Shown here: in pieces, positions 1,965 through 6,053 of the stretch | Layout: each line of letters starts with the position of its first letter | Numbering within the stretch: position 1 is the first letter of the stretch | Assembly: GCA_001817765.1 (NCBI GenBank) | Contig: MHIZ01000037.1 | Coordinates: 3,952 to 33,440, forward strand | DNA from: Candidatus Colwellbacteria bacterium RIFCSPLOWO2_02_FULL_44_20b | GTDB lineage: Bacteria; Patescibacteriota; Minisyncoccia; UBA6257; Colwellbacteraceae | Direction of reading: 5' to 3' | Length of the DNA stretch: 29,489 nucleotides | Position numbers and translations under genes: made by a program | Notes under the pieces: model-generated | Told to the model about the DNA's origin: nothing | What the model saw: only the letters and a program-made list of their open reading frames with translations | Database searches by the model: none

Positions 1965-2657
1965 ATGAAGAAACCTCTTTTAGTTATTATTCCGTTACTT
2001 ATCATTGTCGCGTTTTTTGTTCTTAAGGGGAGTTCGGAAGATAGTTGGGTTTGCTCTGATGGGAATTGGGTTAAGCACGGGAATCCAAGCGCGCCGATGC
2101 CGATGTTCGGTTGCGGAAGTGGTGAAGAAGCGATTGATGGCGAAACAATTACATTCGCGAAAGCGGGCGTTATTACTGTTAATAATCCGGGACTTGAGCT
2201 TGGGGTGCCGTATCTTGTTTATGAAGAACCTGGGAAGCCGGCGATTACTCAACAGCTTGTAATTAGTGAGATGAGTGTTTGTGTTTCGGGGACGGGCTCT
2301 TTGCCATGCGTTGCGATGAGCGTTTCGCCGGATGTTGCTTTTCACGGGAAACAGGCGGTTGTTGAAGGAATTATTGATGGCGACGTTGTCGCGGTTCGGG
2401 TTTTACGAATTTTCGGTGAAAACGATCTGCGTTTTGTGCCGGAGCCGGGCAGATTGTTTATTTCGTGGGCGGACGCGCAAACGCTGATTCGAAAATGTAA
2501 TGTTCGTCAGGTAAGTCAGGCACATTCGCTTGCAATTTATCTTGAACGGAAAGACGGCAAGGAATTTTATACAATTGAGCCGATGATTGATGATATTTTT
2601 GAGGTTGTTCAAGAAAATAGCGTAGCATGCGGGGATATTATTATGGCGACTGAGTAA
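1965..2657 (+). CDS. Membrane-anchored hypothetical protein with WxCxxGxWxKHGxP motif
   Basis: N-terminal TM helix, WVCSDGNWVKHGNP; TAAACT -10 box 6 nt upstream of the ATG. Confidence 0.75.
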   Translation: MKKPLLVIIPLLIIVAFFVLKGSSEDSWVCSDGNWVKHGNPSAPMPMFGCGSGEEAIDGETITFAKAGVITVNNPGLELGVPYLVYEEPGKPAITQQLVISEMSVCVSGTGSLPCVAMSVSPDVAFHGKQAVVEGIIDGDVVAVRVLRIFGENDLRFVPEPGRLFISWADAQTLIRKCNVRQVSQAHSLAIYLERKDGKEFYTIEPMIDDIFEVVQENSVACGDIIMATE

Positions 2658-2664
2658 TTCTTAT

Positions 2665-3180
2665 ATGAAGAAAAAAGTTAGTAACCAGAATAATTACGCT
2701 TTTATTGATAGTCAGAATCTCAACTTAAGCATTCGTGAATTAGGTTGGAAATTAGATTTTAAACGTTTTCGCACATATCTTACGGATAAGTATGGAGTTA
2801 CTAAAGCGTTCCTATTTATTGGATATATTGAGGGTAATAACGATCTTTACGCGTATCTCCAGGACGCGGGTTTTATTTGTATTTTTAAACCCACATTAAA
2901 ATATAAGGATGGTTCTACGAAGGGCAACTGTGATGCCGAGCTTGTTTTGCAAACAATGGTGGAATATACGGAGTATGATCGGGCGATTATTGTGACGGGA
3001 GACGGAGATTTTTATTGTCTCGTTAAATATCTTATAGAACAAAAAAAGCTCGAAGCTGTAATTGTGCCAAACAGGTTTAAATTTTCCGCTTTACTTAAGT
3101 TCAAGATTTGTAGGTCGTACTTGAGATTTATGAATGATTTTGAGAGGAAGTTAGCCTATAAAAAAGAAAAGACCCCATAA
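2665..3180 (+). CDS. NYN domain protein (LabA/DUF88, PIN-like RNase fold)
   Basis: FIDSQN, KGNCDAEL and TGDGDF carry the acidic active-site residues of the family. Confidence 0.9.
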   Translation: MKKKVSNQNNYAFIDSQNLNLSIRELGWKLDFKRFRTYLTDKYGVTKAFLFIGYIEGNNDLYAYLQDAGFICIFKPTLKYKDGSTKGNCDAELVLQTMVEYTEYDRAIIVTGDGDFYCLVKYLIEQKKLEAVIVPNRFKFSALLKFKICRSYLRFMNDFERKLAYKKEKTP

Positions 3181-3218
3181 GGACGAAACCTTAGGGGGCA
3201 CTCTTTTCCGTTGGTGAT
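3160..3218 (-). ncRNA. Candidate small RNA convergent with and overlapping the 3' end of NYN gene 1 (about 59 nt)
   Basis: Predicted AUCACCAACGGAAAAGAGUGCCCCCUAAGGUUUCGUCCUUAUGGGGUCUUUUCUUUUUU: long hairpin plus U6, directly after a sigma70-type promoter; paralogous copy at 5962-6018. Confidence 0.6.
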
Positions 3219-3224
3219 ATTATT

Positions 3225-3253
3225 ATGCTAGTCGCTTGGCGGGTAGGAGTCAA
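3225..3253 (-). promoter_or_regulatory. Antisense sigma70-type promoter TTGACT-N17-TAGCAT
   Basis: -35 at 3248-3253, 17 bp spacer, -10 at 3225-3230; same geometry at 6025-6053. Confidence 0.65.
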
Positions 3254-3425
3254 GATTGCTGTGAATTGTCGAATTGAGTAATAATTTGATCGATTACTTT
3301 ATGAACTATTAGTTTGGATTTACTAAACTATCTCTAGAGGTAGAGGCATTCAGATTAAGGATAAGAGCATGATAGGTTTTTGAGTAATACGCGCTGTACC
3401 CGGCTTTGTGGTAAACTAAAGGAGT

Positions 3426-4322
3426 ATGAAAAAAGCAATAATTTTACTTTTAGTCGTTATTGTCGGTGTTGGCGCGTACTTTTTGTTCCAGAGCTCGTCT
3501 GATATGGCGGACGTGGTTATTGATACAACCCCGTCGGGCGATGAGCAGACGGATGCAGTTAATACAGGGCAAGACGAGGGGGACGTGGTAGTTATCGGAA
3601 AATCGGTTGAAGGAAGGGATATTACTGCTTATCACTATGGTACTGGTGATAAAGAAATTTTGTTTGTCGGCGGTATTCACGGCGGGTACTCATGGAACAC
3701 AGCTCTTGTTGCTTATGAATTGATGGATTATTTAGAGGCGAACGCTGGTGCTATTCCTAGTAACGTTGAAGTAACCGTTATACCAGTATTAAATCCGGAT
3801 GGTCAGAATAAGACTCTTGGTACTGCCGGTCGTTTTACTAAAGTGGATGTGCCGTCCTCACAAGATAAGAAAATATCGGGACGTTTTAACGCGCACAACG
3901 TAGATCTTAATCGTAATTTTGATTGTGATTGGCAATCTACCGGGACATGGCAGAACACGACTGTAAGCGGTGGAAACGAAGCTTTTTCTGAACCTGAGAG
4001 TCAAGCATTTCGAGATTATGTCGTAACGCGTAAGCCAAGCGCGGTTGTTGTTTGGTATAGCGCCGCTGGTGGGGTGTTTTCTTCAAGTTGCGGCGCTGGC
4101 ATTCTTCCTGAAACTCGCACGATCACGAATACTTACGCGCAAGCATCCGGCTATCCGGCGTACGAAAGTTTTGATTTCTATAAAACTACCGGCGATATGC
4201 CAAATTGGCTTGCCAAAGAAAAGATTCCCGCGATCAGCGTTCTTCTTTCTACGCACGAAGATACCGAATGGAGCAAAAATAAGGCAGGTATAGAGGCACT
4301 TCTTCTTCACTACGCTCAGTAA
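3426..4322 (+). CDS. M14 zinc carboxypeptidase homologue (MpaA-like), predicted catalytically inactive, membrane anchored
   Basis: N-terminal TM; DLNRNF retained; HGGYS, WYS and ISVLL replace HGGYE, WHS and ITVEL of the adjacent paralogue. Confidence 0.85.
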   Translation: MKKAIILLLVVIVGVGAYFLFQSSSDMADVVIDTTPSGDEQTDAVNTGQDEGDVVVIGKSVEGRDITAYHYGTGDKEILFVGGIHGGYSWNTALVAYELMDYLEANAGAIPSNVEVTVIPVLNPDGQNKTLGTAGRFTKVDVPSSQDKKISGRFNAHNVDLNRNFDCDWQSTGTWQNTTVSGGNEAFSEPESQAFRDYVVTRKPSAVVVWYSAAGGVFSSSCGAGILPETRTITNTYAQASGYPAYESFDFYKTTGDMPNWLAKEKIPAISVLLSTHEDTEWSKNKAGIEALLLHYAQ

Positions 4323-5203
4323 TGCGATCATTTTTTACGAAGCGTGTTATTACGGTACTTCTTGTTAGTGTCGCGCTCGGTAGCGTTCTGCTTCTTTTTG
4401 TTTTATGGAATTCCGTTACGCCGGAATCAGCGGTGGTGGAACCCGGACTTGGTCCAGAACGTAGTGTCATTGGTTTGTCTGTAGAAGGACGTGAGATAGA
4501 AGCGTATACGTATGGGAATGGAAAAGAACACCTTGCGTTTATCGGCGGCATACACGGCGGTTATGAATGGAATAGCGTACTTCTCGCGTATACGTTTATG
4601 GATTATTTGGACGCGCATCCCGAGGTTATTTCTCAAAATCTAACTGTTACTGTGATCCCATCCGCCAATCCCGATGGGCTCTATAAAATAGTTGGTAAGG
4701 AAGGCCGTTTCACAGAGGCGCATGTGCCGGCTAATAAATCTGCAGTGCCTGGGCGATTGAACGCGCACGACGTTGATCTTAATCGCAACTTTGATTGCAA
4801 ATGGAAGTCGGAGGGTGTGTGGCGGGAAAATCCGGTAAGCGCCGGCTCGGCGCCATTTTTTGAGCCGGAAGCCGCGGCTATCCGAGATTTTGTTTTAGAA
4901 AATAATCCGGCTAGCGTTATTTTCTGGCATAGTCAGGCTAACGCGGTTTACGCGTCGGAGTGTGAGGAGGGTATTCTTCCGGAGACGCTTATGATTATGA
5001 ATGAGTACGCGCGCGCGTCAGGGTATTCAGCAGTTGAGTCATTCGGCCAGTACGAGGTTACGGGCGATGCCGAGGGATGGCTTGCTTCGATAGGTATTCC
5101 AGCAATTACCGTAGAACTTAAAACTCACGAAACTATTGAGTGGGAGGAGAACCTGGCCGGTATTAAGGCGCTTTTTGAATACTATGAAAGTAAAGTAGAA
5201 TAG
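4322..5203 (+). CDS. M14 zinc carboxypeptidase (MpaA-like), membrane anchored, intact active site
   Basis: IHGGYEWN, GRLNAHDVDLNRNF, FWHS, ITVEL; TAATG overlap with the upstream paralogue. Confidence 0.88.
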   Translation: MRSFFTKRVITVLLVSVALGSVLLLFVLWNSVTPESAVVEPGLGPERSVIGLSVEGREIEAYTYGNGKEHLAFIGGIHGGYEWNSVLLAYTFMDYLDAHPEVISQNLTVTVIPSANPDGLYKIVGKEGRFTEAHVPANKSAVPGRLNAHDVDLNRNFDCKWKSEGVWRENPVSAGSAPFFEPEAAAIRDFVLENNPASVIFWHSQANAVYASECEEGILPETLMIMNEYARASGYSAVESFGQYEVTGDAEGWLASIGIPAITVELKTHETIEWEENLAGIKALFEYYESKVE

Positions 5204-5204
5204 T

Positions 5205-5471
5205 ATGAACTATTGGTTCAAACCTAAACGGTTTTGGAAGTGGTTCGCGTTTTATTATCCTGTGAATTTAAAAGGGTGGATTGTTACGATTGTACTTTTT
5301 GTTTTCGCGGTACTTATCTTTTGTCGGATTGATAGCACGTCGCATTCAGTGAGTGATACGCTTTTTTCTTTCGCGCCGTGGATTATCGGACTGATGCTCA
5401 TTTACGACTTACTTTGTTTTCGGACAGGGGAGTATCCGAGCTGGTGGAGAAGAGATATAATGCGGAATTAG
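5205..5471 (+). CDS. Small two-TM membrane protein
   Basis: 88 aa, Trp/Phe-rich, two hydrophobic segments, closely coupled to both neighbours. Confidence 0.75.
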   Translation: MNYWFKPKRFWKWFAFYYPVNLKGWIVTIVLFVFAVLIFCRIDSTSHSVSDTLFSFAPWIIGLMLIYDLLCFRTGEYPSWWRRDIMRN

Positions 5472-5472
5472 T

Positions 5473-5963
5473 ATGGTTTCTGCAGAAAAGAACTTTGCGT
5501 ACATTGATGCCGCCAACCTTCATAAGGGGTTGAGAATCTAGGTTGGCTACTCGACTATAAGAGATTCCGTGTGTGGCTCAGGGACAAATACGGCGTTGAA
5601 AATACTTATCTTTTTATCGGTTTAGTGCCAGGTAATAAAGACTTATATACGCGTTTACAGGAAATGGGGTATGTCCTTGTCTATAAAGAAGTAACGTACG
5701 ACGGGGCGGGAAAAGTAAAGGGTAACCGCGATGCCGATCTCGTACTTAAAACAGTTGTCGACTACTACGAGAAACGTTTTAGCAAGGCGACTCTTGTTAC
5801 AAGCGATGGCGATTATGCTGGACTCGTCAAATTTCTGAGAGAAAGAGATTCTTTTCAATCTCTTATTTCTCCCAGCAATAAGTGTTCTTATCTCTTGAGA
5901 AAGCTTGATATTCCTATTGTCTACCTTGATACACAAAAAGATAAACTGAAAAAGCGATCCTAA
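5473..5963 (+). pseudogene. NYN domain protein interrupted by a single-base frameshift in a G4 run (5526-5529)
   Basis: ATG 5473 gives MVSAEKNFAYIDAANLHKG then TAG at 5539. Adding one G gives ...HKGVENLGWLLDYKRFRVWLRDKYG, collinear with NYN gene 1. DADL and SDGDY are intact. Confidence 0.85.
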
Positions 5964-6018
5964 AAAGAAAAAGCCCCCGGTGGGAACGAAATCCCATAAG
6001 GGTCTTTTCCATGGTGAT
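5962..6018 (-). ncRNA. Candidate small RNA convergent with NYN gene 2 (about 57 nt)
   Basis: Predicted AUCACCAUGGAAAAGACCCUUAUGGGAUUUCGUUCCCACCGGGGGCUUUUUCUUUUU; same 5' end and loop as copy 1, different but still pairing inner stem. Confidence 0.6.
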
Positions 6019-6024
6019 ACTAAT

Positions 6025-6053
6025 AGACTACTTAGATTCTAGCTATTAGTCAA
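6025..6053 (-). promoter_or_regulatory. Antisense sigma70-type promoter TTGACT-N17-TAGTCT
   Basis: -35 at 6048-6053, -10 at 6025-6030, 6 nt gap to ATCACC exactly as in copy 1. Confidence 0.65.

Follow-up and report, generated by a model that had tools for sequence, protein, structure and literature searches.

We analysed a 29,489-nt stretch of contig MHIZ01000037.1 from Candidatus Colwellbacteria bacterium RIFCSPLOWO2_02_FULL_44_20b (hereafter the window), in which two genes of the NYN family of PIN-like nucleases each face a putative small-RNA gene on the opposite strand. NYN1 (2665-3180, plus strand) is an intact open reading frame (ORF) for a predicted nuclease of 171 amino acids (aa), identified by its match to Pfam PF01936 and by an AlphaFold2 model. 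Beyond its end, and pointing back toward it on the minus strand, lies a promoter (3225-3253) with the -35 box TTGACT at 3253-3248, a 17-bp spacer and the -10 box TAGCAT at 3230-3225. Small RNA 1 (3157-3218, minus strand, ~59 nt) starts with the 5' tail AUCACCA at 3218, 6 nt past the -10 box, and continues through a long hairpin, imperfectly paired and capped by a UUUCGU loop, to a 3' U-tract that ends near 3157-3160. The NYN1 stop codon (3178-3180) falls within this hairpin, and the RNA overlaps the last ~7 codons and the stop. NYN2 (5473-5963, plus strand) is a frameshifted NYN pseudogene, recognised from its reading frames and from the Pfam match of a 130-aa ORF. The promoter facing it (6025-6053, minus strand) has the -35 box TTGACT at 6053-6048, again a 17-bp spacer, and the -10 box TAGTCT at 6030-6025. 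Small RNA 2 (5959-6018, minus strand, ~57 nt) begins with AUCACCA at 6018, has the tail and loop of RNA 1 on other but complementary stems, and ends in a U-tract near 5959-5962, at the NYN2 stop; a terminator-like site lies at 5987-5973 on the minus strand. This RNA is intact despite its broken NYN2 partner.

An earlier reading made from the letters of the window alone (the sequence-only reading) had described the succession TTGACT, 17 bp, TAGnnT, 6 nt, AUCACCA, hairpin with UUUCGU loop and U-tract at both NYN genes, and we find it at both. The two RNAs share a purine-rich arm between AUCACCA and the hairpin and an identical UUUCGU loop, while their inner stems differ yet pair and their promoter spacers are unrelated, as that reading had also noted. 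Their fold energies are -22.0 kcal/mol (z = -3.45) for RNA 1 and -21.4 kcal/mol (z = -2.45) for RNA 2, and they match the covariance model R1 with E = 1.2e-8 and E = 1.8e-11, respectively. The composite pattern TTGACT-N17-TAGNNT-N6-ATCACC has exactly two sites in the 589-kb assembly, both of them here, and none in a reversed-pattern control. Judged from these features, a unit spans ~620 bp and forms a self-contained cassette of two genes, a predicted accessory NYN gene and its own putative RNA gene of ~57-60 nt.

NYN1 matches the Pfam NYN family with E = 7.5e-12 and 46.4 bits (cut-off 24.2), the 130-aa NYN2 ORF does so with E = 5.9e-6 and 27.3 bits, and NYN is the only Pfam family matched by the nucleases of the window. 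Residues D15, N18, D90 and the motif D113-G-D115 are invariant across eight diverse NYN1 relatives. The AlphaFold2 model of NYN1 (pLDDT 87.6) has its closest folds in VPA0982 (2qip; Foldseek E = 2.5e-8, TM score 0.70) and the NYN domain of MARF1 (TM score ~0.6), and a profile match to 2qip reaches E = 6.6e-15. On profile and modelled fold, NYN1 is a bona fide member of the NYN fold and a predicted nuclease. The sequence-only reading counted two NYN genes, which stands for the intact NYN1 but not for NYN2, where the first 22 codons run into a TAG at 5539-5541 and the other 144 codons lie in another frame from 5529. That reading overlooked the pseudogene state of NYN2 and also a third NYN/RNA pair, of a different family, on another contig. 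The frame change in NYN2 fits the loss of about one base in the G-run at 5526-5529, and would be either a true pseudogene mutation or a homopolymer error. Copy 1 would be live, and copy 2 would be a dead nuclease with a surviving RNA. Since NYN2 is closer to the NYN protein of another genome (L009, 54% identity) than to NYN1 (43%), the two cassettes are not recent duplicates.

The pairing of gene and RNA extends well beyond the window, to hundreds of bacteria, for the most part uncultured, of many phyla. In 80 loci of NYN1 relatives taken from reference genomes we read the 150 nt behind each gene and, using a hidden Markov model built from 12 copies of the RNA, found a convergent RNA at the expected place in ~78, the exceptions being contig ends and a few divergent variants. 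The hosts of these loci are Patescibacteria of many classes, Omnitrophota, Chloroflexota, Nitrospirota, Elusimicrobiota, WOR-3, Actinomycetota and Bacteroidota. A second set of 79 NYN-anchored loci, collected around another query and searched with covariance model R1, gave a convergent match at E ≤ 0.01 in 53, the E-values of the covariance model being rough. The RNA thus travels with NYN as a cassette, as had been supposed. It is single-copy, convergent and downstream of NYN in all but one of ~250 loci, and its overlap with the NYN coding sequence ranges from a few to ~40 nt among relatives. The one exception is found in genome G009 (L103:982-1560, the same locus as L008 and L318), where the RNA precedes an intact NYN gene on the same strand, 18 nt ahead of its start. 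The closest relatives of this NYN (62-75% identity) are all convergent, and we rejected the co-directional order as a conserved alternative because G009 is a singleton. Some relatives depart from the common layout in other ways. At L007:2013-2339 (= L107), a 99-aa ORF resembling a GIY-YIG nuclease stands between the NYN stop and the partner RNA, as if inserted. In some NYN relatives (L013:1441-2046 and L014:1492-2046, both minus strand) the first strand is followed by a Cys-rich insertion (CxxC ... CxC), and these pair with a variant RNA that keeps the AUCA tail and has a different inner hairpin, GGAyCCGAAAGGUGUUAGUGCCUUAGG.

The homologues also reveal which parts of the RNA are maintained. 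In a seed alignment of 26 sequences, 85.5% of the cells in 18 proposed pairs are paired, and changes on both sides occur in 14 of the pairs. We then counted 59 sequences aligned to the model, a fit that somewhat favours structure and a bias of which the seed is free; here 89.7% of cells are paired and 17 of the 18 pairs have double changes (147 cells). None of 500 shuffles equals any of the observed measures, and sliding the partners by 1-3 columns lowers pairing to 43-66%. G-U pairs number 149 on the minus-strand RNA vs 72 on its complement, and the RNA strand folds more stably than the complement in 59 of 78 sequences, which together argue that the selected structure is that of the minus-strand transcript and not of the NYN mRNA. 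Across the 78 sequences, the tail positions A1, U2, C3, A4, C5 and A7 are 85-99% conserved (consensus A-U-C-A-C-S-A) and a UUYYGU loop with GG/CC closure is present in 67, whereas the helix between tail and loop varies freely. Two other readings of the RNA were set aside. An AUG-led mini-frame that would make the RNA a small-peptide gene is seen in some Omnitrophota copies; by eye, close relatives have it broken up, and a ribosome-binding site is missing. The likeness of AUCACC... to the 3' end of 16S rRNA is a coincidence, as about half of the copies read AUCACG and the likeness ends after 6 nt.

Promoter signals are distributed unequally between the two genes. Within the 50 nt upstream of the RNA, -35 and -10 boxes with at least 10 of 12 consensus matches occur in 57 of 77 loci, a score that shuffled 150-nt sequences reach in 8 of 142 cases, and the end of the -10 box lies 6-9 nt ahead of the conserved A of AUCAC in 68 of the 77. 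The 150 nt upstream of NYN, by comparison, score nearly the same as shuffled sequence. The sequence-only reading held both NYN genes to be promoterless last genes of operons; this applies to both copies in the window and is not general, given that 52 of 142 relatives stand directly behind a co-directional ORF and 41 of 142 have a divergent neighbour. From the promoter scores and the NYN contexts, the RNA appears to be built for strong autonomous expression and the nuclease not. Boxes, 5' AUCAC, loop and pairing had been named as the conserved parts of the cassette, and among homologues the promoter, tail, loop and covariation data bear this out, with both the boxes and AUCACC clearly conserved. 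No conserved protein neighbour emerged among 125 non-redundant loci (the largest upstream cluster has 5 members and the largest downstream one 3), in keeping with the earlier remark that no protein antitoxin is adjacent.

We next looked from the side of the RNA, using a strict pattern for which ~1-2 chance matches were estimated. It returned 61 genomic loci, 3 of which were discarded as chance matches inside genes. Among the ~58 remaining copies, ~46 face an intact NYN, 4 face a truncated or internally deleted NYN and ~7 are orphans. The orphans keep the promoter in most cases and the hairpin and U-tract in all; three of them (L299, L300 and L313) are nearly identical promoter-bearing RNAs on three unrelated contigs without NYN. 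The orphan at L299 faces a 90-aa XRE-HTH (HigA-like) ORF, itself behind a 135-aa ORF. Remnants of NYN beside an intact RNA include an internal deletion that fuses the first ~30 codons to the C-terminal tail (L302), 5'-truncated genes (L261 and L283) and a stub of 69 C-terminal codons (L105). Strong RNA matches among genomes of the same family include one next to a 69-aa NYN remnant, one next to a NYN with internal stops and two orphans, and one same-family orphan RNA belongs to a 100%-complete genome without accessory NYN. NYN2 and RNA 2 fit this pattern of decay, the RNA being kept and the nuclease broken. We came across no clear case of an intact NYN of the NYN1 subfamily without the RNA. 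As far as these sequences allow a judgement, the asymmetry is the pattern expected if a live nuclease makes loss of the RNA harmful.

The pair overlooked earlier lies on contig C5 of the same genome. It consists of a third NYN gene (L003:1486-2109, plus strand; 207 aa, ~30% identical to NYN1) and a putative partner gene (L003, about 2110-2185, minus strand) for a ~45-nt hairpin RNA with a ACUAAACGUGA tail, behind a perfect convergent TTGACA-17-TATAAT promoter. Homologues of the C5-type NYN are present in 17 of 250 genomes of the order, and nearly all intact ones come with this second RNA family, whose members combine the conserved ACUAAACGUGA tail with a U-tract and a 12-bp hairpin in which 8 pairs covary. 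Since the second NYN subfamily has a differing conserved tail and its own covarying hairpin, the type of tail tracks the type of nuclease, and different NYN subfamilies therefore appear to have different cognate RNAs in one and the same geometry. A natural control is provided by a 'core' NYN/LabA-like gene (175-180 aa; for example G014:C11:6993-7445), which has a full-length Pfam match (E ~1e-33) and occurs, usually once, in 47 of the 52 genomes of the family; the present assembly, 89% complete, yielded none. None of eight sampled core loci (L429-L436) has a convergent promoter or hairpin, and each has a co-directional gene directly behind, indicating that the RNA is specific to the accessory NYN subfamilies. 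The gene directly downstream has a PNPase-like N-terminus at the eight loci.

Relatives of NYN1 occur in only 8 of the 52 same-family genomes, at identities of at most 57%, while relatives at 73-78% identity are located in other candidate phyla. Multiple and decayed accessory NYN copies per genome are also seen among same-family genomes. This patchy distribution, the closer relatives in other phyla and the multiple or decayed copies together argue for horizontal movement of accessory NYN genes. We found no NYN1 homologue in PLSDB plasmids or GenBank phages; IMG/VR contigs contain 13 NYN relatives, 3-4 of them with a convergent RNA. A loose RNA pattern gave at least 116 matches in viral contigs, which we attribute to chance, as none of 80 examined loci passes the covariance model. 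The single viral match to the strict pattern is likewise a chance one, inside a coding region and without promoter and terminator. Between the two cassettes, at 3426-5203, the window carries tandem paralogous genes for M14 zinc carboxypeptidases. Three related genomes (G028, G050 and G004) show synteny for this pair and not for the genes that flank it, and a comparison with empty sites to define the ends of the cassettes was dropped for that reason.

The gene pair, the RNA promoter, the covarying structure, the co-occurrence and the asymmetric decay are seen directly in the sequences. The reading we prefer, tentatively and short of an even chance, is a mobile toxin/RNA-antidote-like cassette, of addiction or defence type, in which the RNA would neutralise the NYN protein directly. 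The genetic signatures favour an antidote role, the RNA outliving NYN and having a strong promoter vs a weak or absent one for the nuclease. We infer transcription, toxicity, inhibition and mode of binding as follows. The near-consensus sigma-70 promoter would drive transcription of the RNA toward the end of the NYN gene, stopping at the hairpin and U-tract that abut or overlap the NYN stop codon, and the abundant RNA would render the weakly expressed nuclease harmless. Neutralisation would be direct and type III-like, with NYN recognising the single-stranded 5' tail (A-U-C-A-C-S-A) and the loop (UUYYGU with GG/CC closure) presented on a helix of variable sequence; the tail may sit in the NYN active site as a pseudo-substrate. 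Action on the protein is favoured because tail and loop are conserved across phyla, which a cis-encoded antisense RNA does not need, because the tail type follows the NYN subfamily and promoter-bearing orphans exist, and because the RNA of G009, upstream on the same strand, cannot be antisense. Several points weigh against this reading. The near-invariant, tail-to-tail geometry with a shared terminator in at least two deeply diverged families would suit cis-antisense control and would not obviously be needed for protein binding, and the G009 locus, a singleton with all-convergent closest relatives, may have arisen recently by accident. Neutral decay could account for part of the asymmetry, a 60-nt gene being a much smaller mutational target than a 500-nt gene. 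In the type III systems known so far, the antitoxin consists of tandem repeats that a ToxN-family toxin processes, which is not so here. Using PADLOC-DB 2.0, we obtained only partial matches for NYN; those to the generic 'LabA-like NYN' model cover positions 150-286 of its 310, and HEC-09 is matched weakly, so that a defence role is at most a possible one.

The geometry is the strength of a type I-like account, in which the RNA acts in cis on the NYN mRNA, whose 3' end (the last codons and the shared bidirectional terminator) it would complement perfectly. Loop-loop and tail contacts would seed a duplex, RNase III would cut it, and the NYN mRNA, having lost its protective 3' hairpin, would be degraded or silenced; par(pAD1) RNA I/RNA II, txpA/RatA and bsrG/SR4 resemble such control. 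The geometry of the DNA ensures that the RNA can pair with the last NYN codons and the 3' region beyond, provided that the mRNA runs through the hairpin. This account would explain why the 3' end of the RNA at or inside the NYN stop region is about invariant in ~250 loci and at least two anciently diverged families, with the RNA overlapping the coding sequence by a few to ~40 nt, and why A-rich 5' and U-rich 3' flanks of the hairpin suit termination in both directions. Stems private to each copy would let an RNA match its own mRNA alone, and the ratio of promoter strengths fits an excess of antitoxin. Yet antisense action requires no particular sequence, whereas tail and loop are kept across phyla and change with the NYN subfamily; hairpins of about -22 kcal/mol are very stable and would hinder duplex formation; and the promoter-bearing orphans and the co-directional copy of G009 have no partner to pair with. 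The toxin would be a 171-aa nuclease instead of the small membrane peptide typical of type I, and the tail has no complementarity to the NYN start region: pairing there was rejected, with a mean z of 0.04 over 74 loci. Though on the unlikely side, cis-antisense control has a real chance of being right, and it and protein-directed neutralisation are not exclusive.

Strict co-occurrence and the matching of tail type to NYN subfamily would also suit an RNA that is a positive partner of NYN, serving as cofactor or scaffold, as a guide whose seed is fixed, or as a dedicated substrate that NYN would mature. The two would then make up a ribonucleoprotein (RNP) acting on a conserved cellular or invader RNA, in place of a toxin and its antidote. 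A conserved single-stranded tail beside a helix resembles a nuclease substrate or a short seed, NYN enzymes are known as RNA processors, the fold matches include MARF1, and one paper has a CRISPR-associated NYN RNase in its title. We nevertheless judge this partnership unlikely: a fixed 7-nt tail common to hosts of many phyla carries little targeting information, it would be odd for a cofactor that has no use alone to outlive the nuclease while keeping most of its promoter and structure, and a patchy, multi-copy and often decayed distribution is typical of selfish or defence cassettes rather than a housekeeping RNP. The plainest account would make the hairpin no more than a bidirectional terminator of NYN, with promoter boxes that are incidental or serve, for instance, as insulation against read-through. 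The hairpin and its flanks do resemble an ordinary two-way terminator, the conserved GGAAAAGA block complements the plus-strand U-tract, and model R1 also weakly matches plain terminators (L110). Near-consensus -35 and -10 boxes at a fixed 6-9 nt from AUCAC in ~75% of loci, far above shuffled sequence, make this very improbable, as do a tail and loop that are conserved while the stems covary, the persistence of the element after NYN loss, its absence from core NYN genes (0 of 8) and the confinement of the composite pattern to two sites in the genome.

Among known systems, the description that suits the NYN/RNA pair best is that it would work in the manner of an RNA-antitoxin system, though it falls under neither type I nor type III. 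With type III toxin-antitoxin and abortive infection systems (ToxIN, AbiQ-antiQ, CptIN and TenpIN) it shares an endoribonuclease, here a predicted one, paired solely with a small structured RNA and no protein antitoxin, a strong promoter of the RNA's own, an intrinsic terminator between RNA and nuclease, and a mobile, patchy distribution. The logic would also be alike, excess RNA holding the RNase inactive, which for NYN is a proposal only. The fold here, in contrast, is NYN/PIN-like and not that of ToxN/AbiQ, and the RNA consists of one hairpin preceded by a 5' tail, convergent with and overlapping the 3' end of the nuclease gene, whereas type III RNAs are tandem repeats that the toxin processes and lie upstream on the same strand. 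The absence of a ToxN-family toxin and of upstream tandem repeats places the pair outside type III, as the absence of a small hydrophobic toxin places it outside type I. Convergent type I loci (par of pAD1, with Fst and RNA I/RNA II; txpA/RatA and bsrG/SR4 of Bacillus subtilis) are similar in their tail-to-tail order, complementary terminator loops, strong constitutive promoter and an RNA that complements, or in the NYN pair would complement, the 3' end of the toxin mRNA. Their toxins are small hydrophobic peptides, usually <60 aa, rather than a predicted soluble 171-aa nuclease, and their RNAs are longer and also contact 5' regions, whereas the RNA here is roughly a terminator plus a 7-nt tail, and its sequence is conserved to a degree for which antisense action has no need. 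SymE/SymR and RalR/RalA, also of type I, likewise place a nuclease-type toxin under the control of a small RNA rather than a protein, but their antisense RNAs act at the 5' or translation-initiation region or depend on Hfq, the folds are unrelated and they are known from enterobacteria only.

The PIN-like/NYN fold of metal-dependent RNases is shared with VapC of VapBC, with LabA and VPA0982 (2qip) and with the NYN domain of MARF1. VapC differs in being neutralised by a protein, VapB, and no dedicated RNA partner is known for LabA-like and MARF1 proteins. The DUF3800-associated RNAs come closest as a precedent. These RNAs, drum and skipping-rope, are conserved, structured, terminator-ended and tightly linked to a single protein family, with structures that differ by protein subgroup and a function described as unknown (Weinberg et al. 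2017, PMC5737381). They belong to another protein family, and NYN has no occurrence in that paper (PMC5737381). Rfam 15 holds no such family: nothing in the window matches at gathering thresholds, and at E ≤ 10 the sole overlapping match is rli56, with 20 bits against a gathering threshold of 47 (E = 6.6). A full-text literature search, whose coverage excluded most subscription journals, likewise found no description of a NYN/small-RNA pair. By these searches and the sequences at hand, the likeliest reading of the unit is an undescribed cassette of a nuclease with an RNA antidote.

More broadly, it is possible, though we would not call it probable, that accessory NYN proteins, each with its cognate hairpin RNA, make up a class of nuclease module, RNA-neutralised or RNA-gated, that is new and stands apart from types I and III, comprising several co-evolving protein/RNA families in which the protein reads tail and loop, and spreading horizontally as units of ~600 bp in Patescibacteria and at least eight other phyla. 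The cassette is small (~620 bp), has two parts and comes with natural half-experiments in the form of pseudogenes, orphans and one inverted arrangement, and the hypothesis therefore lends itself to a direct test in E. coli. An RNA that inhibits a compact RNase in a sequence-specific manner could, in addition, find use as a tool. If the RNA is an antidote, a widespread family of RNA-controlled toxins would join the short list of RNA-antitoxin systems, built on the NYN/PIN-like fold that is otherwise known under protein control. Mobile elements and immunity of Patescibacteria are poorly understood, and the cassette would, if this is true, be among the few recognisable conflict- or defence-type modules in their tiny genomes.

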